Under the pieces are notes generated by a model, which did not search any database, was not told the DNA's origin, and saw only the letters and a list, made by a program, of their open reading frames with translations. A stretch of DNA of 64,000 nt from a virus (Duplodnaviria > Caudoviricetes), in the IMG/VR virus record IMGVR_UViG_3300021978_000001, positions 320,001 to 384,000 of that record; one strand, given 5' to 3'. This document shows, piece by piece, positions 2 through 56,294 of the stretch; the stretch's first letter is position 1; each line of letters opens with the position of its first letter. A program made the translations under genes and the position numbers.

Positions 2-826
2 CTGTTCAAAGATTATGGCGCGGACGCGGACTTCGCGAAACTGCATCGGTTGATTCAGGAAGCTGCGCACGAGCAACGCCAGAATGAAAGGCTTACTCAG
101 GAGGAAGAGAGAGCTTCGGCCCTCGCAGCACGTGATGCGCTCGCGCGGGAGGTCGCAGAGCGCCCTCTTGTCGTGCGTCCGCCTGATGTGGGTGCTTTGG
201 GTGTCGAGGCTTCGGACGAGATGGTGGATGCTGCTTCGAGCGAGGGAACCTGGGAAGATCTTGGGAACCTGGAGCAAGGTATCCCGAGGGATGCAGATCT
301 GGCGCGTCAGCCTGCCCCTGAACCGTTGACTCTGGATAACGTAGGCATGTTCCTCGATACAGACGTGGACGCCTTGCGCACAGATGAGGGCATGCACATC
401 CCCACCTGGGATGAGGATGACACGGATGAAGAGAGTGATGCGCTCGAAGAGGGCTCTGAAGTAGTGCCTGCTTCCAGTGATTCCACGAGTCGCTCCGTCT
501 CACCCCTGATTCAAATCCGAAACATGAACACTGTCGATGACATCCATCGCGACACCCCCGCCTGGGAAGCGGGGTACACCATGGGCCTTCGAGACATGCT
601 TGTCAGGTCCGAAAATTCCTACAGTAATGCTCTCTTCAAGAAACACTACTTCTTTATGTATGCGTTGATCATTTGGATCATGATGATGGCCGGGGATCTT
701 TGTGATGAGCGCCCGACGTCCACAGAGATCGCCAATGAAAGTGTGCACCATCACGTGCATCATGCCGCACAGGAAGCCTTGATAGAGAGTCTGCGCTCGG
801 GAGGTTCGCATGCCGTTGATCCATGA
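2..826 (+). CDS. 5'-truncated acidic/coiled-coil protein with C-terminal hydrophobic segment
   Basis: Frame is open from position 2 (LFKDYGADADF...), so it starts upstream of the window; D/E-rich middle; hydrophobic YFFMYALIIWIMMMAG near the C-terminus. Confidence 0.7.
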   Translation: MFKDYGADADFAKLHRLIQEAAHEQRQNERLTQEEERASALAARDALAREVAERPLVVRPPDVGALGVEASDEMVDAASSEGTWEDLGNLEQGIPRDADLARQPAPEPLTLDNVGMFLDTDVDALRTDEGMHIPTWDEDDTDEESDALEEGSEVVPASSDSTSRSVSPLIQIRNMNTVDDIHRDTPAWEAGYTMGLRDMLVRSENSYSNALFKKHYFFMYALIIWIMMMAGDLCDERPTSTEIANESVHHHVHHAAQEALIESLRSGGSHAVDP

Positions 827-1193
827 ATGGGTGAACCCCGAGGAAGCGGAAGAGGAAGCGGTACAGCCCTCGGAGCCGGTTACCCTGGTGGACTTCGATT
901 CGCTTCGGAAAGAAGGTTACCAAGAGGGTTTCGCCGCAGGAGAAGAACGCGCCGCGCAAGAACTCGGTTCAGCTTTTACACACGCGATGTGGATGTGGTT
1001 TCTCGTGGGTTGTGGTGTAGGCTTGATTTTTGGCGCAGGTTGTTTGATGTCTGTGATCGAGGATAAGACGTTGACCATGGGTCCGATCCAGGCTCCGCCC
1101 GTCGTGGCGGCAGAGGAAGCAAGCGGTCTTATTCATGGTGCAGTAGAAGAAGCCTTGAGCCGTACCCCGCACCGCTTGCCCCGAGAGGAATGA
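810..1193 (+). CDS. Small membrane protein; variant N-terminal tag (MPLIHEW)
   Basis: GGAGG RBS upstream; TM-like MWMWFLVGCGVGLIFGAGCLMSVI; GYQEGFAAGEE repeat-like segment. Confidence 0.75.
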   Translation: MPLIHEWVNPEEAEEEAVQPSEPVTLVDFDSLRKEGYQEGFAAGEERAAQELGSAFTHAMWMWFLVGCGVGLIFGAGCLMSVIEDKTLTMGPIQAPPVVAAEEASGLIHGAVEEALSRTPHRLPREE

Positions 1194-1194
1194 C

Positions 1195-2022
1195 GTGCTG
1201 ATCAATGACATGCACAGAGGGTTGCCCGAAGAGGCGCGAGAAGAAAAACCCGAAGAGGCGCGCGAGGCAGGCTGGAGCTTTACCGAGCGGCAATCTCCAG
1301 GCAGCTTCGCGGCGAGACAGGCTGCATTGAGTCGCATGGGGCGTGTGGCGGATTCCCTCGATCAATCACGCGCCCGGCTCGAACGCTCCCGCGAGCGTCT
1401 CTCTCATCCTCTTCATCCGCTCTTCCTGCTAGAGAGTCCCGCGCCGCGCTTGGCAGAACCCCTGGAGACCGTCGAAAGGTTCCCGCCAGGTCCACCCATG
1501 CGTCGCTTGTCTGACGACTTGCCCGATGATCTCCCTGTGATCCCCTCGGGCGTTTCTTCGACATCGACGTTGGAGAACACCAATGTCGATCTCGCTCGTA
1601 TGCTTCAGACCATTGGGGTGTCTTCGGATGACTTCGCGCAGGCATTGTGGAATCAGGAGAGCGTTGTGCTAGGCCGCGTAAACGCGAACGATGATGGTGA
1701 GGATGATACCAGGGGCGAGGGTAGCAGCGAAGATGACATCTTTGCTCCTGTAGAGTCCTTGCGTGACCCACATGCTCTCGATGACATCTTCGATCCCCCA
1801 AGCGCAGAAGAACAGCAACGTCAGCTCGCGCTGACCAATGCACGCATTCAAGAGGAACTGCGAGAGGCGCGCGAGGCACTACGAGTCGCAGCTCAGATGG
1901 TCGAGCACAACGAGCAAGAGGCCCTGGGGTATCAACGTGCACTGTGGGTCCTCGGACTCTTTTGGCTCTTCGTGTTCGGGCTCTCGGTGTGTAGCTTATG
2001 CCTCTCGATCGCCGCGCTTTGA
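1195..2022 (+). CDS. Acidic/disordered protein with coiled coil and C-terminal TM anchor; group B tag (MLINDM)
   Basis: GTG start 1 nt after the previous stop; C-terminal LWVLGLFWLFVFGLSVCSLCLSIAAL. Confidence 0.75.
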   Translation: MLINDMHRGLPEEAREEKPEEAREAGWSFTERQSPGSFAARQAALSRMGRVADSLDQSRARLERSRERLSHPLHPLFLLESPAPRLAEPLETVERFPPGPPMRRLSDDLPDDLPVIPSGVSSTSTLENTNVDLARMLQTIGVSSDDFAQALWNQESVVLGRVNANDDGEDDTRGEGSSEDDIFAPVESLRDPHALDDIFDPPSAEEQQRQLALTNARIQEELREAREALRVAAQMVEHNEQEALGYQRALWVLGLFWLFVFGLSVCSLCLSIAAL

Positions 2023-2052
2023 TTCAACCGCGTTAGCCCAAAGGAGGCACGC

Positions 2053-2556
2053 ATGTACGCGAATGATGGCACGTTACCTTTCGACCCCTGTGAAGCCTGC
2101 AATGGCAAGGGAAAGTATATCGGCTTTAGCGTGATCGAGAACCCATGCAAGAGCTGTAGAGGTTTGGGGATCTCCGCCAACTCCGAGCGACCGGGCTTGT
2201 ATACCTGTAACCTTCTACGGCTCATCGAGCTGTACTGGGGACAGAATGATCCTCGTTGCACGGTGAAGGTGGTTCACAAGCGGGATTCCCCTTCTGCCAA
2301 CCGTCAATGGCGCCATATAAAGAACCTCGCAATAAACCATGGCGTCAGCGAAAGAGCGCCCTGGTGGTTTCAAGCCACCCATGCCAATGGTACCACGGTT
2401 CGGACGGAAGATTTCCCTCTGGAGCCAGTGGCGCTTCCCTATGAGGAAAACCTCTTACGCATGTGCGAGGGTAGCGCGCAGACGCGCGCGGCATTGAACA
2501 AACGCATCGAGCGCGTACTCGCGCGCAAAGCTCCCGTCGAGTCTCTCTTCACTTGA
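2053..2556 (+). CDS. Hypothetical protein with DnaJ-type zinc finger
   Basis: AAGGAGG RBS; two CxxCxGxG motifs (CEACNGKG, CKSCRGLG). Confidence 0.75.
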   Translation: MYANDGTLPFDPCEACNGKGKYIGFSVIENPCKSCRGLGISANSERPGLYTCNLLRLIELYWGQNDPRCTVKVVHKRDSPSANRQWRHIKNLAINHGVSERAPWWFQATHANGTTVRTEDFPLEPVALPYEENLLRMCEGSAQTRAALNKRIERVLARKAPVESLFT

Positions 2557-2557
2557 C

Positions 2558-4130: not shown

Positions 4131-4832
4131 TTAGAAGCCTGCGTGCGCCTCGATGAGAGGCAAGAGGGCGCTGCGGAACTCGGGGCGTGCGAACGCGAGA
4201 CGGATCAATGCCTCACCGAGCTTGAGGTTGCGCTTCTTGGCGTAGTTCTTCGCGATGTCGGAGATCGAAGGCTTCTTGCTCGGGTTGGCGGGAGGATGCT
4301 TGACGTACATCTTGAGCGCCTTGTCGAACTCCTTGCTCATCAGGGCGTTGACCTCATCCTTGTCGATCAGCTCGTCGCGTGTCTTGTCCTTCTTGACCTC
4401 GCGCCAGAACGTCATCTTGTCCTTGTCCGAGGGCTTCTTGTATTTCTTCTGGAGCTGTTGCAGTTCCTTCCCGGAATCATCCTTGTCCGAAGAGCTGTCA
4501 CCACCATCACCCTTCCACTTGTCGAAGAGCTTCTGGAAGAATCCCTTGCCCTCATCCGTGCTCGGGAGCGACTTGATCTTGACCTCATCCGAGCGACCCT
4601 TCGGGTTGGGGTTCTTGACCTTCTGATCACCCACTTCTTCGAGGAACTTCTTGACATCCTTGCCACCCTTGTCCGCGCGCTTGAGCCAGGTGTAAGGCTC
4701 GACGTAAGCGCGGCGGTGTTGAAGCTGCGCGTGCGCTTGACGGATGTCGTCTTCGATCAGGGGCATCAAGTGGGGTCGCAGCTCGCGATGGGTAAAGGCG
4801 AGCTTGATGGTTTCATCACGGAGCGTGCTCAT
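4131..4832 (-). CDS. Lys/Asp-rich protein with two LIRLAF..PE.R..L.PLIE-type motifs
   Basis: AAGGAAGAG RBS before ATG at 4832; motif at both ends (TIKLAFTHRELRPHLMPLIE; LIRLAFARPEFRSALLPLIE). Confidence 0.85.
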   Translation of the reverse strand: MSTLRDETIKLAFTHRELRPHLMPLIEDDIRQAHAQLQHRRAYVEPYTWLKRADKGGKDVKKFLEEVGDQKVKNPNPKGRSDEVKIKSLPSTDEGKGFFQKLFDKWKGDGGDSSSDKDDSGKELQQLQKKYKKPSDKDKMTFWREVKKDKTRDELIDKDEVNALMSKEFDKALKMYVKHPPANPSKKPSISDIAKNYAKKRNLKLGEALIRLAFARPEFRSALLPLIEAHAGF

Positions 4833-4912
4833 GGTTTCTCTTCCTTGGGTGAGTAGGTGGACACACATACACCATCTGTGAGCTACAAACACATTATGCA
4901 ACGCGAGACCTC

Positions 4913-4941
4913 TTTACGAGAACGCTTCAATGTGGTAAAAC
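4913..4941 (+). promoter_or_regulatory. Conserved promoter class
   Basis: TTTACG-N17-TAAAAC with TGTGG. Confidence 0.75.
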
Positions 4942-4979
4942 CCGCTTGAGTACCATTACAGAAACTCGAAGAGGTTAAC

Positions 4980-5877: not shown

Positions 5878-6864
5878 ATGCAAGACAACGAACGCTTTGG
5901 TGAGGTGCGGAGTGCGTTCGCGCAGCGACCTCGGGATGAGGAAGAGGCATTGAGGCAGTGGGAGCTATATTGCGAGCATTGTCTCGGTGATCACGAGCCC
6001 ACGCATATAAGCCAGTACATCATGGATTGTCTCTTTCACTCGGAGAAGACCTCTCTTTTCCACCGAGAGACGCCCCTGTCTGGGTGGGCTCACGAGTTGG
6101 GTATCCGTCTCGGGTATGCGGAAGGACGTTTTGACGCGTGCGTACCCATCCCAGGCCGTCTACCCCGACAGAAACACGCGCATGCTGTTTGCCTCGCTGA
6201 ACGCTTTTTGCAGGCGGTCGCGGTGGCTGCCTGTCATCTTACCTGGCGCCAAAAGTCGAGGGTGCGCGCTTATCCCCCTTACTTCTTTTATCGCGTCCTC
6301 TTGCCTGGGTGGGAGTTTGGTTTCGGTCGCGAGATGCTGGAGGTGTTGCCCGTTCAACCCCCGCGTCGCAGCTACAGGGGTGTGGATTGGCCAAGGGGCA
6401 TGCCCGTCTTGCAGACCGATCAATACTATAGCCAGTTTCTCTCGCGCGCCTTTCTTGCGTCACAGCGCGCGCAACTGAACCTCAACCTGGACCCCCTCGG
6501 TGAACTCTTCCAACGTTTGTGCGCGGATCTAGGGATGTTGCTGTATCTCGTGGGGATCAACCCCACCCGCATCGAGAAGCTGTATGGTGATCTGATTTAC
6601 CTCGCACAAGAAGTGGCCTTTCGCTATGCGGACCCAGGTAGCATCTTCAAAACTTTCTACTACCCACATGAGGAGGTCGAGCAGACGCAGGAGCTAAACG
6701 CTCCCGCCCATAACCGGGAACCTCAACACAGAATCCTCCCCGAGTATGAACCCAACCTTCGCATGTGGGAGTACGCGGTCAATCCTTTCGAGATGCAGAA
6801 GATCTTCGACGAGACGCTCGAAGACTTTGGCAGCTCAGAGCTTTGGGGAAGGATGCTGATTTAA
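5878..6864 (+). CDS. Hypothetical protein, FG[ED]VRS family
   Basis: MQDNERFGEVRSAFAQRP...RQWE; start re-chosen at 5878. Confidence 0.75.
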   Translation: MQDNERFGEVRSAFAQRPRDEEEALRQWELYCEHCLGDHEPTHISQYIMDCLFHSEKTSLFHRETPLSGWAHELGIRLGYAEGRFDACVPIPGRLPRQKHAHAVCLAERFLQAVAVAACHLTWRQKSRVRAYPPYFFYRVLLPGWEFGFGREMLEVLPVQPPRRSYRGVDWPRGMPVLQTDQYYSQFLSRAFLASQRAQLNLNLDPLGELFQRLCADLGMLLYLVGINPTRIEKLYGDLIYLAQEVAFRYADPGSIFKTFYYPHEEVEQTQELNAPAHNREPQHRILPEYEPNLRMWEYAVNPFEMQKIFDETLEDFGSSELWGRMLI

Positions 6865-7760
6865 AGGTACAGCTCGGGGTGCCACCTTGGATTGAGAGGT
6901 TCTTCATGTTGGGTCATGGGACGTGGGGTGTTGAGCCCGAGGTCGTATAGACGACGTGCCAGCTCATCCTGGGAGATGCTTTTCTCATCGCCGTCCTCAT
7001 ACACGAAGAGAACGTCGGGAGGATAGAAGCCGGAGATGATCACCTTTTCGCCGTCAAACCTCGTGGGCTCGTGTGAGAGCCACGCGCCATCATGAGAAAA
7101 CCTGTCATCGTGATAATTCCAGGTACCCTTCCAGGGGAGATCGAGCCCCATGCTGTGCAAGATGGAGAGGAAACCACGCTTGCGCTTGTCGCGTGGGTTG
7201 TGGGACTGTTCATCGAACCGTGCATGCGAGCATGTGTAGGACGGGAACACGCTTGTCCAGCCCATGTGTAGGGTCCAGGCGCCCTGGACAGTCTTGATCT
7301 GGGCATGCATCCTCTCGCCTGTGGGAGCACTCAGGGTTCGGCCATGGCGGATGAAGTCGGAGATCCATGCCGCGCCCTTGATGTGCTCTCTAAGGAACGT
7401 GACAGGCATTCTATGTCCTATGCCCGTGATGGCCCGGCGATAAAGGCAGTGGCAGATGTAATCATGCACCGGCCCTTCCATGGGAAACTCCGCAGAGACA
7501 GGCACGTTCAAGATGTGATAGCGTGTGTGGTCGTCTAACACCTCGTTATACCAGATGTCCTTGCTCAAGATCTGCCTCGCAGACGTCACCCACCCGAGCA
7601 AGTGCCAGGCTTGGTGTTTTGTAATCGTCCGCATGATCTCCTGTTGCGCGACCTGAGCCTGGTCGGGAGACATTTCTCCCGTGAGGAGCCATAGCCTGCG
7701 CACGTTATCCCCATACCAGAAGCGCGCCATCATGCTGCGCCATTCGCCTGTCCCAAACAT
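6861..7760 (-). CDS. Hypothetical protein, weak FGEVRS-like start
   Basis: Strong AAAGGAGG RBS and its own minus-strand promoter; starts MFGTGEWRSMM. Confidence 0.8.
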   Translation of the reverse strand: MFGTGEWRSMMARFWYGDNVRRLWLLTGEMSPDQAQVAQQEIMRTITKHQAWHLLGWVTSARQILSKDIWYNEVLDDHTRYHILNVPVSAEFPMEGPVHDYICHCLYRRAITGIGHRMPVTFLREHIKGAAWISDFIRHGRTLSAPTGERMHAQIKTVQGAWTLHMGWTSVFPSYTCSHARFDEQSHNPRDKRKRGFLSILHSMGLDLPWKGTWNYHDDRFSHDGAWLSHEPTRFDGEKVIISGFYPPDVLFVYEDGDEKSISQDELARRLYDLGLNTPRPMTQHEEPLNPRWHPELYL

Positions 7761-38577: not shown

Positions 38578-38592
38578 TCCACAGGTGATAAG

Positions 38593-39276: not shown

Positions 39277-39286
39277 AGGGGTACTT

Positions 39287-41703: not shown

Positions 41704-41728
41704 CGCTTGCCTTGCTTTAAGGTATAAA
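41700..41728 (+). promoter_or_regulatory. Conserved promoter class (TAAGG variant) with overlapping hairpin 41716-41780
   Basis: TTGACG-N17-TATAAA; aaggtat/atacctt and gtctcg/cgagac arms. Confidence 0.75.
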
Positions 41729-41797
41729 GAGGTCTCGAACCTTGAATCTCGAAAATGGAAATGCGAGACGATACCTTGAAACATGGGAGAGCATGAG

Positions 41798-44151: not shown

Positions 44152-44153
44152 TC

Positions 44154-44182
44154 TTTACAAGACGCGCGCGTTGTGGTATCTC
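44154..44182 (+). promoter_or_regulatory. Conserved promoter class with hairpin 44180-44214 covering the RBS
   Basis: TTTACA-N17-TATCTC with TGTGG; ctccaggg/ccctggag 8-bp inverted repeat whose right arm overlaps GGAGG. Confidence 0.75.
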
Positions 44183-44219
44183 CAGGGAGACGGCATTCAC
44201 TCGAACCCCTGGAGGACTC

Positions 44220-45041: not shown

Positions 45042-45700
45042 CGTTGGATGTGCATGGCTTTCGTGAACACCTTGTCCAGCTCGTGGGGGGTGAATGGGTA
45101 GGGGAGTACCTGCTCGTGGTAGAGTCACGCGATCTATTCATGCACCTTCAGGTGAGCGTCTTCGGCGGTCGCGAAATCGGTGAGAGGCTGCATCACCCTG
45201 AGATCAAGGTGTACGTGTACAATCGCTTGCGGCTCAACGACAAGGGGGAGCCTTCACTGCGATGTTGGACCCACGATGCCATGCTCACGTCGGAGGATTA
45301 CAAGAGAGACCGCGAGGATTACACCGGGGGGCAACTTCGACAGATACAGACATGGCTCGATGCCTTGCCACAAACGCCTGTGAGCTACGAGGACAAGCGC
45401 GGGACACATTTGTGGGCGTGGGCTCACCTTCCTGTCCCGGACCACACAGCGATGCTCTTACGCAGCATAGGCGCCGAACCTCTTTCTCGCGAAGATTACA
45501 CATGGCGGCATCGTCCGTTTTCGAGCCCCTGGCAGCTCGGAGAGGCTGTGTATGAGATCTTTCATGTCGCAGGTATCCCGCCCCGCTTGCCGCTGCAAGC
45601 CTGTGAACTGGGAAGTAACGAGGACGCGCGCGCGTACCTTGCCCGCGTTCGGCGCCAGGTCGATCAATACGAACTGATTCTACGAACCTTGAGGAGATGA
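45038..45700 (+). CDS. Family A paralogue
   Basis: ARAYLARVRRQVDQYELILRTL. Confidence 0.8.
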   Translation: MTLDVHGFREHLVQLVGGEWVGEYLLVVESRDLFMHLQVSVFGGREIGERLHHPEIKVYVYNRLRLNDKGEPSLRCWTHDAMLTSEDYKRDREDYTGGQLRQIQTWLDALPQTPVSYEDKRGTHLWAWAHLPVPDHTAMLLRSIGAEPLSREDYTWRHRPFSSPWQLGEAVYEIFHVAGIPPRLPLQACELGSNEDARAYLARVRRQVDQYELILRTLRR

Positions 45701-45701
45701 T

Positions 45702-46409
45702 ATGCAGATGTTCCCCGATCAAAAGACGTTCTGGGAGGTCTACCTCCAACATCTCGAAGCAACCTTGCCTGAGTGGACCTTCGCCTTGAAAGTCGAGGAG
45801 GAATCTGAGACGGCGGTTTCGGAGAACCACGAGGCGTATTACATCCTGGCAAAGTCCCCGAGGTTTACCTATGACCTCCTCGTGCGCTGTGACTTTTACC
45901 ACGCCCCGAAGACCTCTACCGAGTCTCTCATGAACATGCTGGTTTTGCCCATAGGCCAGGGCGGGTGGCCGCTCACGAAGTGGTTTGCTCCGCCTGATGA
46001 CTCTGAATTGGGTATAGACATCCGGGAGGACGTGCGCGAGTTGAACGATGCCATGTCTTCCTGGAAAGCAGCGTATCAGGAGAGTGATGGTTCTGTGACG
46101 CGGTATGTGGGGTGGGCGCTTGAGTTTGACCTCGATCGCATCCACCAGATGTGTGAGACGTTCGAGGGGCAGATTATCTCAGATGCTCCGGGAGAGCGCA
46201 CGGTGGTGTGTGCTTTCGAGCACTTCGAGCTGGAGGTCTGGCCCGACAATACGTTCTTGCCCGAGTTCGTGTTCCGAGACTTGCGACCGTGCATGGGCAC
46301 AGACGCCGCGCGTGCGGGCATCCAACTTCACCGTAAAGCGGTAGACCTGTACGAGCTGATCCTTCGCACGTACTGGCCTGCCTCACCTTCCCTGGAGGAC
46401 CCCTCATGA
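45702..46409 (+). CDS. Family A paralogue
   Basis: HRKAVDLYELILRTYW. Confidence 0.8.
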   Translation: MQMFPDQKTFWEVYLQHLEATLPEWTFALKVEEESETAVSENHEAYYILAKSPRFTYDLLVRCDFYHAPKTSTESLMNMLVLPIGQGGWPLTKWFAPPDDSELGIDIREDVRELNDAMSSWKAAYQESDGSVTRYVGWALEFDLDRIHQMCETFEGQIISDAPGERTVVCAFEHFELEVWPDNTFLPEFVFRDLRPCMGTDAARAGIQLHRKAVDLYELILRTYWPASPSLEDPS

Positions 46410-47179
46410 TTTATAACGACTCTGCTTCTTTCCTGGAATCCTTTCTCGAACGCTCGGCAGATCTCGCGGCGTTGCATGGCTTGAATGGCAGGAGGGCGGG
46501 ACCTAGCTCACGGCGCCAGGGAGCTGTCATGTGGAATCGTGAGGGCACGTGCTACGAGTTCAGGCTGTTGCTCAAAGCGACCAGCGCGACGGAAGGTGTA
46601 GCGTTGCTCGCAGGGTTCTTTGTGTTGCAGAACGACGACGGGGACCCGTTGGGTGCAATCCTCAATTTCACGCACAAGCAACAGATCGAAGAACGTTCCC
46701 TTACCGTGAAAGTGGTGCAAAACGATAGTCTTAATCCCGAGCTGTTTTATCAACAGCTCGGGTACCCTGACGAGTCCTTCTTTCTTCCGGCACTCCTCAA
46801 CCTTTTCGAGTCCATCGAGCCTTGCGCCTTTCGCCATGAAGGGCGTGTGTATCACTGGGAGGGGTTCGCGCCCGATTGGAGTGCTCTGAATCAACATGAA
46901 CCTTTGCTGGTCGAGATGGGCGGGGTGCGCCTCGACGAGGATGCCCTGGATCTCGGGCTCTTTCAGGAGAGCTTGTTTCGGGTGTACCACTTCGAGTATG
47001 AGGACCATGCGTTCTACTTCGCGCCGTGCGTGCGAAAGGAGATCGCGCCGATCTTTTTGAACATCGAGACCTTCCCGAGCATGCTCAGTCCTCGTGACCT
47101 CTTGCGTCGCTACCGTAAAGCGGTGGACACCTACGAGCTGCTTTCGCGCACGATCAACACCCAGGGATCTGCTTCATGA
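46406..47179 (+). CDS. Family A paralogue; close to 47176-47931
   Basis: VYHWEGF..DWSALNQHEPLL.EMGG.RLDED; YRKAVDTYELLSRTI. Confidence 0.8.
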   Translation: MIYNDSASFLESFLERSADLAALHGLNGRRAGPSSRRQGAVMWNREGTCYEFRLLLKATSATEGVALLAGFFVLQNDDGDPLGAILNFTHKQQIEERSLTVKVVQNDSLNPELFYQQLGYPDESFFLPALLNLFESIEPCAFRHEGRVYHWEGFAPDWSALNQHEPLLVEMGGVRLDEDALDLGLFQESLFRVYHFEYEDHAFYFAPCVRKEIAPIFLNIETFPSMLSPRDLLRRYRKAVDTYELLSRTINTQGSAS

Positions 47180-47931
47180 TTTATGAAACCAAAGCAGACA
47201 TGCTTCGAGCCCTGCAAGAGCGTCTCGAAGATGCCTTGCCTCCTGGGCTCGATGTGCGCGGTTGGGAAGCCTCCATAAGCGTGACGGGTACCTGGAGCGC
47301 GTACAGGTTTTACCTGCGCGAATATCCCTTGAGCGCGACACAGGGACTCGCGCTCCTCTCAGGTACACTGGAGCATAATGAGCCCGGGGGTGGTTACATG
47401 GCAGACCACGCGCGGATAAGCCCTATTACTCACGAACAACAGTTGCTTGAGCGTCGTGTACAGGTGGACCCTGGGGGTCGTTACGGGTACAGTGGTGATC
47501 TCTACCATGAGCTGGGGTACGGGAGTGAGCGTGACCCCTCCCGCGCCGTGCCATTGATCATGCAAGCGTGGCGTGATCCTGTGGCTTACCGCGAAGGAGA
47601 GCGCGTGTTCTATTGGGCTGGCACCAATCCCTCCTGGGATGCTCTCGATCAGCATGAGCCTTTCCTGCGCGAGATGGGGGGCGAGCGCCTCGACGAGGAT
47701 GTGTGTGATCTGGGGGCTTTCTTCGAGTATGCGTTCAGGGTGTACCGCTTCACCACGCAAGCCTACGACTTCTGTTTCGTGTTGTGCGTGCTCCCTGTCG
47801 TGCGCCCCATGTTTCGTCTCGTCGAGGAAGGGCTCTGGCTTGAGCCTCGTGAGCAGCTCCAACGCTCGCGTCGCGCTGTGGAGCTTTACGAAACACTCAC
47901 CCGGACGATTTACCCAGGAGAGATGCCATGA
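47176..47931 (+). CDS. Family A paralogue
   Basis: WDALDQHEPFLREMGGERLDED; SRRAVELYETLTRTI. Confidence 0.8.
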   Translation: MIYETKADMLRALQERLEDALPPGLDVRGWEASISVTGTWSAYRFYLREYPLSATQGLALLSGTLEHNEPGGGYMADHARISPITHEQQLLERRVQVDPGGRYGYSGDLYHELGYGSERDPSRAVPLIMQAWRDPVAYREGERVFYWAGTNPSWDALDQHEPFLREMGGERLDEDVCDLGAFFEYAFRVYRFTTQAYDFCFVLCVLPVVRPMFRLVEEGLWLEPREQLQRSRRAVELYETLTRTIYPGEMP

Positions 47932-48728
47932 CCCGTCAACCGAGGACCCCTGAAGAACGTCGCCTCGGAGAGGATCGTCTCTGGTTCTCGAACCATGGCG
48001 AGCTTCGCGTGTGGTTGGAAGAGGAGCTATGGTCCCTTGTCGAGGCGGAGATCTTACCCCTGGAAAAGGCACCGCAACGCACCGAGCATGATGTGACGTG
48101 GGGCGCGCGCCAGGAGTTTTTCCTGACCATGGGAGGAGGAGGCTTTCGATTCTATGAACATGCGTATCAAGCTCATTTCTACATGGAGTGGTGGGAAGAA
48201 CACTGTCCTCGCAGCGCAAGCCTTTACAGAAAACGTGACGCGACAAACCTCCTCGAAGAGCTTGGTCAGGCGCGTCAACAAGAGGATGGTGGGCGTGATC
48301 AGGTGACGCTCACGGACTGGTTCATGCTCGAAGATCCTGATTACTTGACGCACCTTCACGCCGTGTTCGACCACTTCGCCTACAAGCCTGTGGGCATCCG
48401 GGGAGGCACGGGGAAGCAGCTCGTCATTTGCAATGGCTTCGACCCCTTCGACATGAGCGCACACTTCACAGATCTTGAAGACAAACTCGGGTGGAGGGTC
48501 GTGCCCTCTTCGGATGATGACCTTTCCATCGTGCACTTCGAGCATGGCAAGGTGTTGATCCCTCATGATGCCCGGCTCACGCCTCTCATGCACTTCAATA
48601 CCACGGAACACTGCTACGACCCGCAAGAGATCCAAAAGGTACTTGACGGGCAGCGTAAAATGCTGCAACAATTCAGGCTGTACTTGAGGATGTATCGCGA
48701 CAGGCAGAACGTCAGAAAGAGTGTGTGA
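47928..48728 (+). CDS. Family A paralogue; close to 48728-49450
   Basis: ICNGF.P.D...F..LE..LGW; QRKMLQQFRLYLRM. Confidence 0.8.
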   Translation: MTRQPRTPEERRLGEDRLWFSNHGELRVWLEEELWSLVEAEILPLEKAPQRTEHDVTWGARQEFFLTMGGGGFRFYEHAYQAHFYMEWWEEHCPRSASLYRKRDATNLLEELGQARQQEDGGRDQVTLTDWFMLEDPDYLTHLHAVFDHFAYKPVGIRGGTGKQLVICNGFDPFDMSAHFTDLEDKLGWRVVPSSDDDLSIVHFEHGKVLIPHDARLTPLMHFNTTEHCYDPQEIQKVLDGQRKMLQQFRLYLRMYRDRQNVRKSV

Positions 48729-49450
48729 TGGAACGTCAATGGTTTGACACCAGGGAAGATCTGGTCGAGTGGATGGTCGCGCAACTGCGCGCGTTGGAAG
48801 ACCAGGGCGCCTTTTTGGACGTGCGCGTCGAGTATGAGGCGAAGCGCTCTTATGCCATAAAGTTGAATCGGTACTGGGATTTGTACATCACCTCACCATG
48901 GTTCGCGGGAGATTCACACATTCAGGGTATTTCGGTGTTCCTGGAGTGGAGCCATGCGGACCATTACGAAAGTCTGGGCACGCTCGAAGAGATCGAACGA
49001 CGCCTCGCGAATGACGTGTCCGCCTCCCTGCGCTACGAAGATGTTGCGGTGATCGCGCGTCACTTCAAGGATGTGCGATGTGGCGTGCGTGAGTATGAGC
49101 ACGAAGGGTTAAAGCATGTCGCGATCTGGAACGGCTTCTCGCCTTCGGATCGCGCACAGGATTTCGCGCTGCTCGAAGAGCTTTGGGGGTGGAAGTGCCG
49201 CCCCAGTGGGTATTGGTACAAGCGCGCCGATGTAGAGGGGTTAAGCCTGGATGTCCCTCGTGATGCCTTGCTTCCCTTGCGACTTACTTTGAGCGGTGGT
49301 CTTTCTTTCACGGACCCTGACGCGTTCGAGGCGCATCTCGGGAAACAGAGACGCGTTCTGGCGCAGTGGCGCACCTACAGGCGTATGGTGAATAGAAGGC
49401 AGGACACAGAAGCAGGAGAAGCAGATGTTGGAAGCAGTGTGGAACTTTGA
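48728..49450 (+). CDS. Family A paralogue
   Basis: IWNGFSPSD; QRRVLAQWRTYRRM. Confidence 0.8.
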   Translation: MERQWFDTREDLVEWMVAQLRALEDQGAFLDVRVEYEAKRSYAIKLNRYWDLYITSPWFAGDSHIQGISVFLEWSHADHYESLGTLEEIERRLANDVSASLRYEDVAVIARHFKDVRCGVREYEHEGLKHVAIWNGFSPSDRAQDFALLEELWGWKCRPSGYWYKRADVEGLSLDVPRDALLPLRLTLSGGLSFTDPDAFEAHLGKQRRVLAQWRTYRRMVNRRQDTEAGEADVGSSVEL

Positions 49451-49805
49451 ATTTACCTGGACAGACGGGATGCAGGTCGGGCTCGTGGACTTCCGACGGT
49501 CTCGCAAGCGACGAGTGCTCACCCTCTGGAACGAAGCTCGAACACAGAAGGTCGAGTCTGTCCTGGAGATCGAGACCAACGAAAGAGGTGAGTTCTCCTG
49601 GAAACTCAAGGAGATCAGTTGGACCAAGGATACTTGGGGGTGGGGACGCACGTTGCCTCGTGTACAGACCTACGAGCAGGCGCCCGACCTCTACCGGATG
49701 ATCGTGAGCGCGCTCGACCACTTCGATGACGTCGAGATCTGCTCGCAGATTCGCTTCGGGGATAGCTTACCAGCTCCGAAGCTCCAACCCACCGTGTTCA
49801 AGTAA
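49425..49805 (+). CDS. Hypothetical beta-rich protein
   Basis: AGGAG RBS. Confidence 0.65.
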   Translation: MLEAVWNFEFTWTDGMQVGLVDFRRSRKRRVLTLWNEARTQKVESVLEIETNERGEFSWKLKEISWTKDTWGWGRTLPRVQTYEQAPDLYRMIVSALDHFDDVEICSQIRFGDSLPAPKLQPTVFK

Positions 49806-49809
49806 GCCC

Positions 49810-50379
49810 ATGTTGATCAACAGCTTCATGCAAGACATCGGATACGCGCGCGTGATCTTCGATAACGTCGAGTGGTATTATGCGCGACACCACGGCAAGC
49901 TCGGGTTCACGCGCCATTATCCCGCGTGCAAAGAGCGCTTTCTACCTGGCATACAGGAACTCTTGCCCTCTCCTGCTCGGATGCATCACTACATGCCAGG
50001 GGAAAACGTCGAGGGGCTTAGTGTCTATGCAAGTTGGTATCCGAATGATGGTGCTCACGTTGCCCGGTCCAGCGCGGTGAAGGTGTCCGATATGCGCGCG
50101 TACCTCACGCGTATCGAATGTCAGGTAGGCTTTGGTAGTGCGCATGTGCACCCCTGTTTCCAGTGGACGACGATCAAGTTTGATGTCCCTGGTGATCTCG
50201 AAGGGTTGGGTGAGAGGCAAGAAGTCCTGTACCAACAGGCGCTCGTGTGGTATGCTTTGGGGGTCCAGGGCGGGCTCTTGTTGCAGGATTTGGATGAGGA
50301 GCAACGCGAGATCGCCATCGAAATGTGCCGGTATGTGTACCACAACCATGGCTTCGATCAGGGTGCCCCTTCATGTTAA
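49810..50379 (+). CDS. Group B tagged protein (MLINSF)
   Basis: ATG 4 nt after the previous stop. Confidence 0.75.
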   Translation: MLINSFMQDIGYARVIFDNVEWYYARHHGKLGFTRHYPACKERFLPGIQELLPSPARMHHYMPGENVEGLSVYASWYPNDGAHVARSSAVKVSDMRAYLTRIECQVGFGSAHVHPCFQWTTIKFDVPGDLEGLGERQEVLYQQALVWYALGVQGGLLLQDLDEEQREIAIEMCRYVYHNHGFDQGAPSC

Positions 50380-50759
50380 TCAATGGCTTCATCACGCCGC
50401 TTCTGGTGCAGAACGTCAACAACTACCTGTGGTACATCGAGGATATACGGTTGCCTGTGTGTCTGGCTGTACAGGTAGCTGGTGATGCCCTCTTTGTGCC
50501 GCATGAGGATAGCGCGCTGCCGGGCTCACGTGTCATGCATCGCACCCTGTCATGCGTTTACCCGGAGGAGGGTGCGCGCGTCGCGTGGGTGTCCGAGATC
50601 TACACCCAGGACTATACACTCTATGCGCCTTTTGCGATTCGCGAGAGCCTGGTTCAGGGGATCGAGAAGGTAGAGGCAGAAGAGACGCGAGTGTGGTTGA
50701 GAGAGACCTTGCATTGGACGCAGCGCTGTGGCTTGTCAGGAGGTTCGACATGTTATTGA
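50373..50759 (+). CDS. Group B tagged protein (MLINGF)
   Basis: Overlapping start. Confidence 0.7.
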   Translation: MLINGFITPLLVQNVNNYLWYIEDIRLPVCLAVQVAGDALFVPHEDSALPGSRVMHRTLSCVYPEEGARVAWVSEIYTQDYTLYAPFAIRESLVQGIEKVEAEETRVWLRETLHWTQRCGLSGGSTCY

Positions 50760-51523
50760 ATGTCTTTTACAAGACCCTGTACAACACCGCCTGGGATGGG
50801 ATGCTCGACGGCTGGCGTGTGCTCTTGATCGAAATCGAAGACTACTTCCTGTCTTTCATGCAGCGTCCCTGTGTCGAGGGTGAGATGGGCTACAGGGACC
50901 TCACGGTGATGCGTAGCCTCGGGGTATCCATCTTCACCAAGAGCACAGGAAGCCTCGTGCACTTGAGTCTACGGGGGCGCTTTATCGAACCTTGCCCGGG
51001 CTTTATGGAGGTACGCCTTCCTACGATGTATCGTGAGCGCGCCAAGGGCGCGTGGCCCAGCTTTATCGAAGAAAGAGAAGCCTCTATCCTCGACATCTTC
51101 TTTACCCCTGATGATCCTTACGCCTTCACCGTGCGTATCGTGGACCCCCCGAGCATCTTCCCTATCCCTGCCGGGATACCAGACGCCACCAAGCCGTGGA
51201 AGACCACGACGCGTGGTCATTACAAGGGAAGAATAGGAGGTCAAAACATCGAGCTGGTGTGGGTCGAGAGCGATCGACATTGGGAGCTTCGCTCCGTCAA
51301 ATATTCCGGGGCGTTCCAGGCGCAAGCCATGGCCTGGGAGGGGCTGCGAGAACCGACAACCCGGGCCATGTATCTCACCCTCTGTATGGCTTATGTCTCT
51401 CTTCCCAATCAATCCCAGGGGATGAAGGAGACGCGACGCGATGCTCTGGCGATGTTCAAGAGAGACTTCGAGGATTTCCAGACTGCGTTCAAGTTACTTG
51501 ACAAGCGCGAAGGGAGAACGTGA
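50750..51523 (+). CDS. Group B tagged protein (MLLNVF)
   Basis: AGGAGG RBS. Confidence 0.8.
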   Translation: MLLNVFYKTLYNTAWDGMLDGWRVLLIEIEDYFLSFMQRPCVEGEMGYRDLTVMRSLGVSIFTKSTGSLVHLSLRGRFIEPCPGFMEVRLPTMYRERAKGAWPSFIEEREASILDIFFTPDDPYAFTVRIVDPPSIFPIPAGIPDATKPWKTTTRGHYKGRIGGQNIELVWVESDRHWELRSVKYSGAFQAQAMAWEGLREPTTRAMYLTLCMAYVSLPNQSQGMKETRRDALAMFKRDFEDFQTAFKLLDKREGRT

Positions 51524-51524
51524 C

Positions 51525-52367
51525 ATGTTGTATAATGCATTTACCACCATGGGGGAGGTTCAGGTGCTCCGGCTTCATGCGGGAGGCTTCGCGTACAGGG
51601 GACGTTTTTACGAGGTCCAGGCTACGCGTACACCAGAGGACCCCATGCTCCTGCGCGTTCGCGTGAGCAAGGTGCTCTCTCCAGGGAATGCTAAGAGGTT
51701 GGATGCCCGCGAGAAGACACAGCGCTTGCTTCAACTCAAGCGCGCGCAGGACACCACGCGATTGGCACGAAGAGTCCACCACGCACGCGAAAAGGCGCTG
51801 CAAGGCACCCTGGATGCCAGGACCGTGCGTGGTAACACAGAGCGGCATATGTTCACCTTCTACCTTCGTTTACCTGGTTGGCTCGCGCAAACTGAATCGG
51901 AGTACCAACGGTGCTATGAGGTCGTCTGGAAGTGGATGATCCGTGGTATGCTCCGGCATCTCCCGAAGCACAAGGCGTACCTCGAAGGGTTGCTGCATGC
52001 GCAGCTCGCGTTCAAAGGCTCGTGGCGTCAACCCTGGGTAAACGCGAGAGCGTTTGCACCAAACCTTGCGGGTTCTACACGGGATCATCTGATCCTGACC
52101 ATCCCCGGCTCTGAACTTCCTGATGTCGTCCCCATGCGTCAACCCATGGGCGCTCTGTTCGCATCTTCGGTGGATATTCGCGGTGCACAAGTACCAGATG
52201 ACCTTTCGCAAGAGGAACTCGCGGTGATGCGTAGTTCGCTGGCTGAGTTTGGTCCTTCCATCCTGAACTCTTTCGTGAGCGTTTACCGCCAGGGGCAGCT
52301 AGTCGAGCACGTCTGGAGACTTGAGGGTGACGAGCAGGTTCAAGAACACGATCCAGAGGAGGAGTGA
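51525..52367 (+). CDS. Group B tagged protein (MLYNAF)
   Basis: GGGAG RBS. Confidence 0.8.
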   Translation: MLYNAFTTMGEVQVLRLHAGGFAYRGRFYEVQATRTPEDPMLLRVRVSKVLSPGNAKRLDAREKTQRLLQLKRAQDTTRLARRVHHAREKALQGTLDARTVRGNTERHMFTFYLRLPGWLAQTESEYQRCYEVVWKWMIRGMLRHLPKHKAYLEGLLHAQLAFKGSWRQPWVNARAFAPNLAGSTRDHLILTIPGSELPDVVPMRQPMGALFASSVDIRGAQVPDDLSQEELAVMRSSLAEFGPSILNSFVSVYRQGQLVEHVWRLEGDEQVQEHDPEEE

Positions 52368-52368
52368 G

Positions 52369-52866
52369 ATGCTCATTAATCTCATGACACCTCTGGGCAT
52401 TCGAGAAGCCCCGGTGCACGTACACCAGGATAGGCGTGACTACAGGTTTGTGGTCGAGCGGGGTGCGCCTGAAACTCCGCAGCTTTTCCTGGTCACATTC
52501 TCTGTCGAGTATGTTCGGGGAGCGATTGGAGCGTCCTGGTTGGGTTTCGCGAACATTCGCTTGCTCGCACCTCACGTGGATAGAGCACTGGCGCAAAAGT
52601 GGTTGGAGCGAGTCGAGGTGTTACTTGAGATAGGGGAGAGCATCGACATCGGGGGTAGACCCCTGCACTCACGTCATCACTGGAAACAAGCCCTGTTGCG
52701 TCACCTTCGCGATCAGTTCCTCGGTGAGGTCGATTACATGCCACCAGAGAGGGCCTCTCTGGCGCGCATGGTCGAAGTGCTCTTGTGGCATTACAAGACC
52801 ATGGGAGAATTGCCGCTCCCCTTGCCTCCCTCCAAAAAACCCTCCAGTCCATGGTGTCGCTCATGA
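52369..52866 (+). CDS. Group B tagged protein (MLINLM)
   Basis: GAGGAG RBS. Confidence 0.75.
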   Translation: MLINLMTPLGIREAPVHVHQDRRDYRFVVERGAPETPQLFLVTFSVEYVRGAIGASWLGFANIRLLAPHVDRALAQKWLERVEVLLEIGESIDIGGRPLHSRHHWKQALLRHLRDQFLGEVDYMPPERASLARMVEVLLWHYKTMGELPLPLPPSKKPSSPWCRS

Positions 52867-53504
52867 TTACACGCAGTCACAGCTTCAAGCAGATGATGTT
52901 CCTGGAGGGGCTACTTACCGAACTACGAACGGGGAAGCTCGTGTTTGAATCGAGCGATGGTGCGGTGTCTCTGATCTATACAAGATCTATTCGACCAAAC
53001 TATCATCTCCAGGTCGTGCTCGACCTCCAGCTCCTCACGCCGGTCTCGATCGTCTATCGTGAGATCCCTGAAGAGACGTGGTGTTCGACGTTTGCGGTGA
53101 GGTTTCAGTATCACCCAGAAGATAGCCCTCATACCGAGAGCTTTGTCTTCAAGCGTCTGGAGCATGAAGCACCATCGGCGTACATGAACCTGGCAGTGTA
53201 CGCGGAAAAGGTCTTGCGTGAGCATGCAAGAGCGCTCGAACGCGAGGAGAGTGACGCGCAGCATGACTTCGGAGAGTGGACGCCCTTCTACCTCGCTTGT
53301 GCGATGGCTGAACGCGTGCCCTCAACGCCTCTCAAGGTGCAGGAGATGGCTTATGCCGCATGGCGACAGCATAACAGTCTCGTGGACTCCTTCCGAACCT
53401 TGATGAACCTGGAGGTCGCGACGAAGCATTGTTACTGGGGACATTGGGGGTTGGGGACTCTGTACTTTGTAGAAGAGGAGGAGAGTGATGCCCCTGTTGA
53501 ATGA
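52863..53504 (+). CDS. Hypothetical protein
   Basis: ATGA overlap. Confidence 0.7.
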   Translation: MITRSHSFKQMMFLEGLLTELRTGKLVFESSDGAVSLIYTRSIRPNYHLQVVLDLQLLTPVSIVYREIPEETWCSTFAVRFQYHPEDSPHTESFVFKRLEHEAPSAYMNLAVYAEKVLREHARALEREESDAQHDFGEWTPFYLACAMAERVPSTPLKVQEMAYAAWRQHNSLVDSFRTLMNLEVATKHCYWGHWGLGTLYFVEEEESDAPVE

Positions 53505-54126
53505 CTTCATGAAACCACGTCTCGACGCGGAGCGGGATGAACATCTCAAGGCGCTTACAAGTGTGTGTTCGGCCCGCGTCAAGAAGCTCGAAAAATACCT
53601 CCTCGCGACGTATCCTGTCGCAGAACGTGTAGACGCTTCGCGCGCCGGACGCTTCATGCTCACGCGCTACACCCCCTTCGAGTGGTGGGCGTGCTTTCTG
53701 GCGGCTCACCACTTACCCTCAATGATGCCCATGCCCCTGGCCGCGCAGCCGATGAATGTGACCATGCCGTACCAGATCATGTCCACAGGGGAGGACCCCT
53801 ACTCCTATCACTGGGTGACCGTGCCGACGCGTCTGGTGTGGCTACTGCGACCCGGGTGGTATTACGTCATCGAGTTGGACATGAGAGGACACAGGCGCGC
53901 GCAGATCTGCAAGGATGCTTTCGATTGGTGGGATGAGGATTGGCGTGACCCGCATCCTTCGGACTGGAAGACGCGAAGGTATGCGCGCGTACCTCAGACG
54001 TTCGTGCGCCCAGGGGAGATCTCTTCCGAGAGTACCCTGGCACTCTTGAGGGCTTATCAAAAGGGGCATCATACCTTGATGAAACGCTTGCTCGGAGACA
54101 CGGTGGAGGTGTTGCTAGGGGTGTGA
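53488..54126 (+). CDS. Group B tagged protein (MPLLNDF)
   Basis: GGAGGAG RBS. Confidence 0.8.
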   Translation: MPLLNDFMKPRLDAERDEHLKALTSVCSARVKKLEKYLLATYPVAERVDASRAGRFMLTRYTPFEWWACFLAAHHLPSMMPMPLAAQPMNVTMPYQIMSTGEDPYSYHWVTVPTRLVWLLRPGWYYVIELDMRGHRRAQICKDAFDWWDEDWRDPHPSDWKTRRYARVPQTFVRPGEISSESTLALLRAYQKGHHTLMKRLLGDTVEVLLGV

Positions 54127-54138
54127 TCCTGTGTTACC

Positions 54139-54864
54139 ATGGATTTGGTAGATGTGTACCATTTTCCCAGGTATGTCATGTTGATCAATTATTGCAAACG
54201 CATCGAACAGGCGACCACCGAGGAGCGCGCGATCCTGGATCGCAGAGACGCGCGCTTCGGGATGGCCCGAGCTGAGATCACAAACGCGCCCATACTCCCG
54301 GCGCTGTTGCCCCCCGAACGAGTACCGCACGAGCGAAGAGATCGGGCGGTTTACTTCTATTGGTGGTTTGTGCCCGAGGACTTCCCGGAAGAGGAATCCC
54401 TCTGGGAGCCTTCAGGATATGCGGAAGCGAACTTCCTGGGCACGGTGGGGCGTCGGGTCGAGTGCCTGGAATATCATGGGACTGTGAGTTGGAAAGCACA
54501 TCTTTTGCACATGCTGCATACGTTGTGCCCGAAGCTCGCTTACGCTCCTTCTCCTCTTGCCATCGACCTGAATATACCCCATGTGTTCGATGCACGCACC
54601 GAGATCATGTTGACCTGGCAAGCAGACGCGAGTAGCACGCATGTGATCTTGACGCGTGAGGGAGGCTCCTGTCAGTGGGAGGTGACTTACATCGACCCAG
54701 ATCACAGACTGGAGACCTTGTTCACGTCGCGGTTGCACCCCTGGAACCTCCAGATCACAGATCAGCCTCGATTCCAGTACAGCACACACTTTAACCGGGC
54801 ACGTCTCGCTTATATGGCCTTCTATGACCGAGGCCCGCGTTCTCTGCAACTTCCCGGAGCTTGA
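54139..54864 (+). CDS. Hypothetical protein; alternative start 54178 gives a group B tag (MLINYC)
   Basis: ORF tiles; start ambiguous. Confidence 0.7.
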   Translation: MDLVDVYHFPRYVMLINYCKRIEQATTEERAILDRRDARFGMARAEITNAPILPALLPPERVPHERRDRAVYFYWWFVPEDFPEEESLWEPSGYAEANFLGTVGRRVECLEYHGTVSWKAHLLHMLHTLCPKLAYAPSPLAIDLNIPHVFDARTEIMLTWQADASSTHVILTREGGSCQWEVTYIDPDHRLETLFTSRLHPWNLQITDQPRFQYSTHFNRARLAYMAFYDRGPRSLQLPGA

Positions 54865-54865
54865 G

Positions 54866-55300
54866 ATGCTTTACAACGCCTTGTGCGCGTGGCGGGACAT
54901 GACCCCACAAGAACGTGAGCAGCTCTCCGCGCATGTTGGAGAGGACACGAAGAACCGTTGGGGGTTGTTTCCCTTGTGCGTGGCTCACTACTGTGACTAC
55001 AGCAGGGATTATAGCACCGTGATGGTGTATGCCTGGGCAGTTTGGGTTGGCCCGACCTTCAACGCGGCGGAGTGCTTGCTGTGTGTCCAGTCGCTTCATA
55101 TCCCCATGAGTCGAGGATATGAAGGGGTGAGATGTTCGCCTTCCTGGTACAAGGAGAAAGCACAAGAGCCTGAACGCATGATCGACACTCTTCGCCGCGA
55201 GTGGAGGGTAAAGCTCAACTATCCAGCGGCTTCGATGTCCAGTGCTTTACGCTTGTGGTCTATTGACTACGATCGTCTAAGAGGCTTCCGAGAGACTTGA
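54866..55300 (+). CDS. Group B tagged protein (MLYNAL)
   Basis: GGAG RBS; ATG 1 nt after the previous stop. Confidence 0.75.
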   Translation: MLYNALCAWRDMTPQEREQLSAHVGEDTKNRWGLFPLCVAHYCDYSRDYSTVMVYAWAVWVGPTFNAAECLLCVQSLHIPMSRGYEGVRCSPSWYKEKAQEPERMIDTLRREWRVKLNYPAASMSSALRLWSIDYDRLRGFRET

Positions 55301-55356
55301 CGTGCCTTGGTTGATTGGGGTAGTCTTTGGTTCGCCCTGAAACGGAGTAGCGCGTG

Positions 55357-55671
55357 ATGTTGTTGAATCCTTTGTGCCATGATAAGTTGCATTTGCCCCT
55401 CGAACGATGGTGTACAGAAGGCTGTGTCTTCACCTGTGAACACGAATGGAAGTTGTACTACAAGCACAAGAAGCCACACCACTTGATGCGCGAGTCCTGG
55501 GTACGTTGGTATATCTATCGAGCAGACGGCACGCTTGTTACAAAGGGGCGTCTGCTGGTGCAACCTGCGCATCGTGTGCAGAGCGGGTATGACATGCAAG
55601 GCACCTATTACAGTGCCTCAGAAGAATCAAGCATTTCGAGCCATCCCAGCGTTCGTGGAGGTGGGGCATGA
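55357..55671 (+). CDS. Group B tagged protein (MLLNPL)
   Basis: GGAG RBS. Confidence 0.7.
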   Translation: MLLNPLCHDKLHLPLERWCTEGCVFTCEHEWKLYYKHKKPHHLMRESWVRWYIYRADGTLVTKGRLLVQPAHRVQSGYDMQGTYYSASEESSISSHPSVRGGGA

Positions 55672-56294
55672 GCGTATCTAATGCCTTGTGCAAGTGGGGG
55701 AATCTCGTGGCCTTTTTGGAGGGAATCGAGGCGCAGCTCTCCCCGTGGTGGCGCTTCGATTACAACAGCGCCGAAAAGCAGGATAACATCACGACCGCGA
55801 CGATCGTCCACACGATCCTACCCTTGAAAGCGCGCTTCAAGTACACGACCAGCCTTTACACCCCATTGCGTAGCAAGAGGGCCTACCTCAATGACACGTA
55901 TATGGCTTCTCTGGGGGTTCTCAAGGCGGTCGGGGAGGTCATGGCGCAGGCGCATTGGTCTGTGATGTATCTCTGGCCTGATGCCGATCTGAGGATGCGT
56001 TCGCTCGCGCACAGTTACGCTGCCAAGTCCTTCCAGGCTTGGCATCCTGATGGTGAGAACCCCGAGAACCGCCACGAGGTCTTTGATATGCTGGGTCAGC
56101 GTCTCATCACGATCCTCGCGCAAATGCAGAAAGACAACGCGGTTTACCCCATCACGCTTCACACATGGGAAGTACCCCCCGAGGGGTTCCCTGATTTCCT
56201 GAAGTCCGGTGCATCTTTACAGGAACGCCTGGACTGGCACCCCTATCACACGCTCCAGTTGCAACCCGTGCCCTGGGGCTTCTCTTACCAGTAG
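55668..56294 (+). CDS. Hypothetical protein; variant tag (MSVSNAL)
   Basis: GGAGG RBS, ATGA overlap. Confidence 0.75.
   Translation: MSVSNALCKWGNLVAFLEGIEAQLSPWWRFDYNSAEKQDNITTATIVHTILPLKARFKYTTSLYTPLRSKRAYLNDTYMASLGVLKAVGEVMAQAHWSVMYLWPDADLRMRSLAHSYAAKSFQAWHPDGENPENRHEVFDMLGQRLITILAQMQKDNAVYPITLHTWEVPPEGFPDFLKSGASLQERLDWHPYHTLQLQPVPWGFSYQ

Follow-up and report, generated by a model that had tools for sequence, protein, structure and literature searches.

The described systems closest in kind to the element analyzed here are the capsid-targeting sequence of bacteriophage T4 and the N-terminal degrons. In T4, the internal proteins IPI, IPII, and IPIII and the Alt protein share a short peptide at the extreme N-terminus, with the prohead-protease site (Leu/Ile-x-Glu) located directly after it. 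Among the N-terminal degrons are those of the lambda O protein for ClpXP and of SoxS, MarA, and UmuD for Lon, as well as Leu, Phe, Trp, or Tyr recognized via ClpS; to our knowledge, the known degrons are individual to each substrate and never take the form of one fixed hexapeptide on dozens of proteins. Here we describe a hexapeptide with the consensus M-L-[ILVY]-N-x-F (hereafter, the tag) that opens numerous proteins encoded in a 64,000-nucleotide stretch of viral DNA (the window; bases 320001-384000 of the IMG/VR record IMGVR_UViG_3300021978_000001, denoted G000) and elsewhere in the same genome. The tag resembles both of these systems and shows the defining properties of neither; it is a candidate for a portable recognition label that is read at the free N-terminus.

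The record is 437,490 bp long, with direct terminal repeats and 57% G+C. With genes for a terminase, a portal, and a prohead protease among the ~540 that it encodes, G000 is a huge tailed phage, known from uncultivated material; a clamp loader is encoded as well. Coding is mainly on the - strand, with a + strand block at ~295-400 kb that contains small orphan genes, arrays of tandem paralogs, and genes of nucleotide metabolism (thymidylate synthase, DHFR, and PyrB-type). A megablast search of the window against a phage collection produced no match, two tagged proteins yielded nothing in pattern-based searches of IMG/VR, and we found no relevant description of such an N-terminal motif in jumbo or huge phages in the literature.

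The original prediction, made from the window, listed 18 open reading frames (ORFs) that begin with the motif, and all 18 translations read as claimed. Most of the listed starts are preceded, 5-10 nt upstream, by a GGAG-type ribosome-binding site, and the same starts are chosen by independent gene calls on the contigs of relatives. A census of gene starts across the entire 437-kb genome with the pattern M-(x)-[LIV]-x-N-x-[FLMYC] identified ~36 tagged starts, that is, ~6% of the proteome, including four that the gene caller had missed or mis-started (e.g., MIINAF at genome 298837); the + strand block accounts for ~27 of these, between 297 and 388 kb, and the - strand for another ~10 at scattered sites. 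In a position table aligned on the Asn, the consensus reads M-L-I-N-A-F, and K, R, H, or Y commonly comes next. The strict motif opens 21 automatically called N-termini, whereas its frequency inside proteins predicts 0.22 (Poisson P ~1e-34) and 1000 shuffles of the first ten residues yielded at most 3, so that the motif is far commoner genome-wide than in shuffled N-termini. At the DNA level, the pattern ATG-YTN-NNN-AAY-NNN-TTY occurs 21 times and its reversed control once. The Leu is found at residue 2 in 18-22 proteins and at residue 3 in 3-6, with all other offsets at background (0-1); it is an N-terminal motif in the strict sense, with a set spacing from the initiation codon. In the variants shifted by one, residue 2 is P, G, T, A, or S in 10 of 10 cases, and it is before such residues that methionine aminopeptidase cuts off the Met. 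Because residue 2 of these variants permits Met removal, they would regain Leu as the second residue of the mature chain. A small residue 2 is present in half of the G000 proteins, so that 10 of 10 has a chance of ~0.001 (~0.5^10) in a test that was chosen post hoc; with this proviso, the pattern points to reading of the peptide from its end.

The constraint on the tag was originally attributed to the peptide, not the DNA, on the strength of the varied codons in the window (five for Leu, both for Asn, and both for Phe), and codon counts across the genome confirm this. The Leu position is encoded by TTG, CTC, CTT, CTG, and TTA, with ATC, ATT, and GTA in the Ile and Val variants; Asn is encoded by AAC (19) and AAT (17), and Phe by TTC (17) and TTT (11). 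Four sister contigs, obtained via homologs of two bearers of the tag, allowed the comparison of 13 sets of orthologs. At the fixed positions of the tag, 14 of the variants are synonymous and 3 change the amino acid, in each case that of the third residue (Y to H, I to T); for codons 7-15 of the same sets, the corresponding numbers are 28 and 30 (P = 0.014 by Fisher's exact test). Mean pairwise identity among the orthologs is 0.92 over residues 1-7 and 0.81 over the remainder. To judge from this pattern of variation, the tag is a feature under selection at the level of the peptide.

The bodies to which the tag is attached are mostly unrelated, as had been noted for the window apart from a few adjacent pairs. 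When the first ten residues are trimmed off, BLASTP and phmmer find similarity between bodies only in three adjacent pairs (346537/347103, 354739/355247, and 143271/142828 in genome coordinates), and the same programs detected no untagged paralogs of bearers within G000. Comparison of 20 bearers with Pfam and PHROGs yielded DUF6794, one weak match to a baseplate family, and otherwise noise. The DUF6794 bearer, genome gene 305686, matches PF20594 over residues 8-86 with 31.5 bits (cut-off 27.1). An exhaustive HMMER search collected 295 homologs of this domain, and among the 149 that were inspected a true tag is present in only one, the phage ortholog P0011 (MLLNALC); two others fit a loosened pattern, probably by chance. 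The family otherwise opens with the motif of its first helix, which in gene 305686 is placed exactly at the end of the tag. Judged by this family, the tag is portable, having been added onto a domain of a widespread cellular family.

An AlphaFold2 model of gene 305686, built from a 100-sequence alignment, consists of seven helices (pLDDT 93), with residues 1-10 in a coil (pLDDT 74), and that of gene 294110 is mostly beta with a C-terminal helix (pLDDT 68), residues 1-18 being below 50. In the seven-helix bundle of the DUF6794 model, R49, N50, D75, and D76 are invariant; a Foldseek search with this model against the PDB gave no match at E <= 0.001. For window gene 34739, the model in the ESM Atlas has a pLDDT of 0.32, and its structural neighbors are meaningless. 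Four bearers have one membrane segment each, and the distribution of charges and the lack of a signal peptide suggest that their tag lies on the cytoplasmic side. Neither shared similarity nor a single fold was found across the bodies, given only three related pairs, two fold classes, and four membrane proteins. Thus, the tag is not the first strand of one shared fold, a possibility that had been considered from the outset: one modeled bearer is all-alpha and the other mostly beta, with the tag unstructured in these 2 of the ~36. It is a portable tag.

The tag is retained in the four sister contigs, and a homology search with genome gene 191979 found only a sister, 86% identical, in which MLVNAF is kept. 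A search with the DUF6794 bearer led to a 373,477-bp ENA contig and its JGI twin. This 373-kb relative is syntenic with G000 (a Ro60-type gene, a metallophosphatase, and DUF6794), with orthologs 25-72% identical and orthologous bodies behind the tag at only 25-41%, and encodes at least 7 tagged proteins (MLINYFQ, MLINHFK, MLLNALC, MPLCNHF, MALINAF, MLLNVYG, and a 35-aa ORF, MLINALA), along with a MIISQF start that represents an Asn-less variant. The MLINALA ORF, of 35 codons (L024:4394-4501), is directly followed by a 140-codon ORF with a TTG start (4544-4966), and the two may be parts of one tagged gene, interrupted by a frameshift or by an error in the assembly. Genome gene 294110 and its ortholog in the 373-kb relative are 25% identical overall, and their first five residues, MLINY, are identical; two positional ortholog pairs without a BLAST match between the bodies also keep the tag (MLINHFK and MLLNYFK; MALINAF and MPLINLF). 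Pattern searches gave no match in either of two complete phages that are more distant, LR745208.1 (485 kb, with a terminase 39% identical) and Tunturiibacter phage Tunturi_5. No convincing tags were seen among terminase relatives from IMG/VR, which are core-gene fragments without orthologs of the tagged accessory genes, and the last 10-kb step along the 373-kb contig contains no tags and another paralog family instead. Kept in the 373-kb relative and absent from the distant phages, the tag belongs to a single clade, itself poorly sampled, and is the most durable part of its bearers, outlasting the bodies.

On balance, and with no more than moderate confidence, we favor the view that the hexapeptide serves as a portable label for recognition from the free N-terminal end. 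Under the mechanism that we propose, a clade of huge phages would graft the hexapeptide onto ~36 small, structurally unrelated accessory proteins, and one common reader would grip the free N-terminus together with the side chains of Leu, Asn, and Phe; reading would most likely occur in the cytoplasm, and the tagged set would thereby be handled as a group. As to the form of this handling, our best guess, tentative as it is, and the most concrete mechanism is timed destruction, in which the bearers would have the tag as a common degron that targets them to an AAA+ protease. The prime candidate for the reader would then be the full-length LonA of the phage, with a host protease as the alternative, and degradation would clear accessory or takeover proteins that growth cannot dilute in the infected cell. 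Docking to another hub appears about as likely as timed destruction.

Several candidate readers are encoded in the genome. LonA (G000 176390-178810, - strand; L029:568-2988) is an 806-aa protein with the substrate-binding N domain, the AAA domain, the lid, and the S16 protease; few phage records contain a full-length Lon (18 of 50,697 match, many of them short fragments), and it is absent from the two tag-free complete phages, LR745208.1 and Tunturi_5. A GroEL homolog (G000 197146-198780, - strand; L042) matches the Cpn60 profile with E = 1e-68. A 574-aa AAA ATPase (G000 49844-51568, - strand; L028:1069-2793) combines one classic AAA domain (residues 303-431) with a 300-residue N-terminal region that matches no known family; its closest phage homologs are mycobacteriophage genes annotated 'AAA-ATPase', with 29% identity. 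The ClpS, ClpP, Hsp70, and tubulin families are absent from G000; accordingly, the phage encodes no N-recognin of its own and no tubulin that would mark a phage nucleus. A further gene of 129 aa (G000 138751-139140, - strand) has an N-terminal region that looks GroES-like, a putative assignment, and a tagged gene, MAIENYF, is located 667 nt upstream of it, with two small genes in between.

Like the degrons of AAA+ proteases, the tag is a short hydrophobic peptide that is modeled as exposed at the N-terminus and is independent of the fold behind it. With respect to Lon in particular, a tag that is hydrophobic and exposed in the models coexists with a phage LonA, and Lon-dependent turnover of the bearers is hypothetical. 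An N-degron read by ClpS was rejected: such a degron needs Leu as residue 1, whereas here the predicted mature chain has Leu in second place, so that one more residue would have to go, and the phage has neither ClpS nor ClpP. There is also a possible likeness to the bacterial sliding-clamp motifs QL[SD]LF and QLxLxL, hydrophobic end peptides of 5-6 residues that are shared by many unrelated clients and in which, as in the tag, the second residue is Leu and the sixth is hydrophobic. However, the tag has an invariant Asn at position 4, where the clamp motif is hydrophobic, and Met rather than Gln at position 1, and the clients of the clamp are DNA enzymes, whereas the bearers of the tag are orphan accessory proteins.

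A number of points weigh against an end-read label and, in particular, against Lon as its reader. Recent recombination of 5'-ends among neighboring genes could inflate the apparent portability of the tag. The two folds are the only ones modeled, that of gene 294110 with moderate quality (one good model of five, from a two-sequence alignment with its 26%-identical ortholog), and low pLDDT is common at chain ends and thus a weak sign of flexibility. Lon and the tag are linked solely by their co-presence in the same genome. Furthermore, Lon degrons need not be N-terminal, so that Lon alone leaves the strictly N-terminal position of the tag unexplained. Some ~10 bearers are located among late or structural genes on the - strand, a poor fit to a timer of early proteins. 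Finally, Lon is also encoded by a relative (G002) represented by 113 kb without tags; this fragment covers core genes only and contains an ortholog of a single weak bearer, with a different N-terminus there, so that the distribution of Lon relative to the tag says little either way.

One rival explanation, in which the tag is no address, holds that the bearers form one fast-evolving family, or that 5'-ends are copied repeatedly between neighboring genes, with the N-terminal peptide as the conserved working part, such as a plug or a binder of one host target, and with bodies that diversify in an arms race. In its favor are the tandem clustering of the bearers, with ten tagged genes at window 49810-56294 broken by one untagged interruption, three adjacent pairs that are detectable paralogs, a surrounding block rich in tandem paralog arrays, and a tag restricted to one clade. 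Nevertheless, we consider it unlikely: the DUF6794 bearer comes from a widespread cellular family without the tag, all-alpha and mostly beta models stand beside membrane proteins, single bearers are found at ~10 scattered places on the other strand, and 5'-end copying would explain the spread of the tag and not the fixation of Leu, Asn, and Phe through synonymous change. Loading into the virion by a T4-type tag, in which the peptide would dock its bearers to the scaffold or core as the prohead assembles, so that they are packaged and injected, is less likely than a cytoplasmic reader and, in our estimate, improbable. The logic is that of T4, in that otherwise unrelated small proteins share a short N-terminus acting at the level of the peptide and not the DNA, and the phage has a prohead protease, a portal, and a terminase; moreover, one weak bearer at genome 85631 (MPLFNDF), with the weak baseplate-family match, is located among large tail- or baseplate-like genes. 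However, the tag has no sequence likeness to the T4 peptide, and no protease site follows it: in the Asn-aligned position table nothing is conserved beyond a basic or aromatic residue at +3, with the proviso that the specificity of the protease of this phage may differ. The bearers number ~36 rather than a handful, ~27 of the 36 are located in the + strand accessory block with the early-type nucleotide-metabolism genes, away from the head genes, and four have membrane segments, which are also a possible feature of the ejection proteins of other phages. Within the same genome, a second, different N-terminal leader (see below) is a better candidate for capsid loading.

A co-translational role, in which the nascent peptide acts on the ribosome or on N-terminal processing (start of elongation, drop-off, or deformylation) and thereby tunes yield, would account for a strictly N-terminal motif at a fixed distance from the start and is compatible with any body. 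We regard it as very improbable given that the codons vary freely while three side chains are fixed, early-codon effects being usually linked to features of the codons or of the mRNA, and that there is no apparent reason why it would be restricted to small orphan accessory proteins. High-GC DNA yields many spurious ORFs, and a few of the starts are ambiguous; yet chance or miscalled starts have a negligible probability in the face of the ~100-fold enrichment, the 21 matches against 1 in the reversed control, the ribosome-binding sites, the independent start calls in relatives, and the conservation of the tag in orthologs. A Sec or Tat signal peptide was also rejected, as none of the tagged N-termini contains a hydrophobic window and the tag is six residues long and includes a polar Asn. 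Secretion as such is unlikely, there being no hydrophobic signal region and the tag being probably cytoplasmic by predicted topology. Thus, the address label suggested by the original prediction survives as a selected peptide tag on unrelated bodies, whereas the virion as its destination is weakened and secretion is unlikely; a protease, for which the full LonA of the phage is available, is still a candidate.

The tagged ORFs of the window are all on the + strand and are given here in window coordinates. The first, MPLINLF (1-826), begins 14 nt before the window at genome 319987 and encodes an acidic protein of 279 aa with a single membrane segment near the C-terminus. MLINDM (1195-2022; GTG start, 275 aa) has a C-terminal membrane anchor, and in MGLINDF (16844-17641; 265 aa) a membrane segment from ~residue 36 is followed by a Cys-rich region and then by a region of PAVS repeats. 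A cluster of four comprises the paralogs MLVNQF (26537-27085; 182 aa) and MLENMF (27103-27603; 166 aa) together with MLINMF (27690-28214; 174 aa) and MLINHF (28218-28814; 198 aa). Another paralogous pair is formed by MLYNAF (34739-35266; 175 aa), whose sister ortholog reads MLHNAF, and MLYNMF (35247-35807; 186 aa). MTLINAF (42840-43361; GTG start, 173 aa) has orthologs that read MTLINAF and MTLINGF. Among four looser variants proposed earlier, MIRNAF (39739-40275; GTG start, 178 aa) and MSVSNAL (55668-56294; 208 aa; orthologs MSVVNAL and MGVRNAL) fit the motif, whereas the two without the Asn are doubtful, namely MPLIHEW (810-1193; 127 aa, one membrane segment) and MLIPCF (39287-39742; 151 aa), which has Pro at this position.

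The run of ten tagged genes at 49810-56294 is opened by MLINSF (49810-50379; 189 aa), followed by MLINGF (50373-50759; 128 aa), MLLNVF (50750-51523; 257 aa), MLYNAF (51525-52367; 280 aa), whose homologs, with 65-78% identity, led to three sister contigs, and MLINLM (52369-52866; 165 aa), with orthologs that read MLTNLM. After the single untagged interruption at ~52785-53504 it continues with MPLLNDF (53488-54126; 212 aa), MLINYC (54178-54864; 228 aa), the start of which agrees with gene calls in relatives, and the Cys-rich MLYNAL (54866-55300; 144 aa) and MLLNPL (55357-55671; 104 aa), and ends with MSVSNAL. Directly upstream, at 43896-49450 (+), is a run of untagged paralogs of 220-270 aa that start with MIY[ND/ET], MQ[MI]F, or MERQWF, such that tagged and untagged tandem arrays are interleaved. 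A scan for promoters and terminators over window 38000-57500 detected signals at or below the shuffled expectation.

The tag is accompanied by other conserved N-termini in this clade. A leader of the LKTQLIRLGNANPELR type is 70-80% identical between proteins without a match in their bodies; it is present in the 373-kb relative (L024:11279-11818 and L026:7914-9542), there within the accessory block too, and in G000 at 217904, 221245, and 230636 (- strand). Like the hexapeptide, this helix-Pro-helix leader is N-terminal and is carried by unrelated proteins of the same genome. It differs in having another sequence, four times the length, a predicted helical structure, and a different set of proteins, with no protein carrying both, and the two separate tags suggest two destinations. 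In addition, the 373-kb relative encodes at least 3 paralogs that start with MEFGSGEWR (L043:2800-8046), and the first ~55 residues of these match G000 326861-327760 (- strand), that is, window 6861-7760; by such similarity, this set is a further conserved N-terminal module on diverging bodies. It is a more doubtful proposition that the two leaders constitute a two-label address code at the N-terminus, in which the helix-Pro-helix leader would direct proteins to the capsid and the hexapeptide, read together with the free amino end, would direct a second set, the ~36 accessory proteins, to a phage-encoded machine, be it LonA, another AAA+ protein, or a chaperone, that serves as a timer or a sorting station.

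The genes of huge phages are mostly orphans that offer little to work with. A single six-residue label would group ~36 of those in this phage into one functional set, and it provides an experimental hook for their study, through peptide pull-downs and reporter fusions. Should a phage-encoded protease or sorting machine prove to read the tag, it would follow that phages organize their proteome with more than one terminal address, and the tag would then represent a degron or a means of sorting that the virus itself encodes, for which no counterpart has been described in phages, as well as a very short portable tag for engineering.

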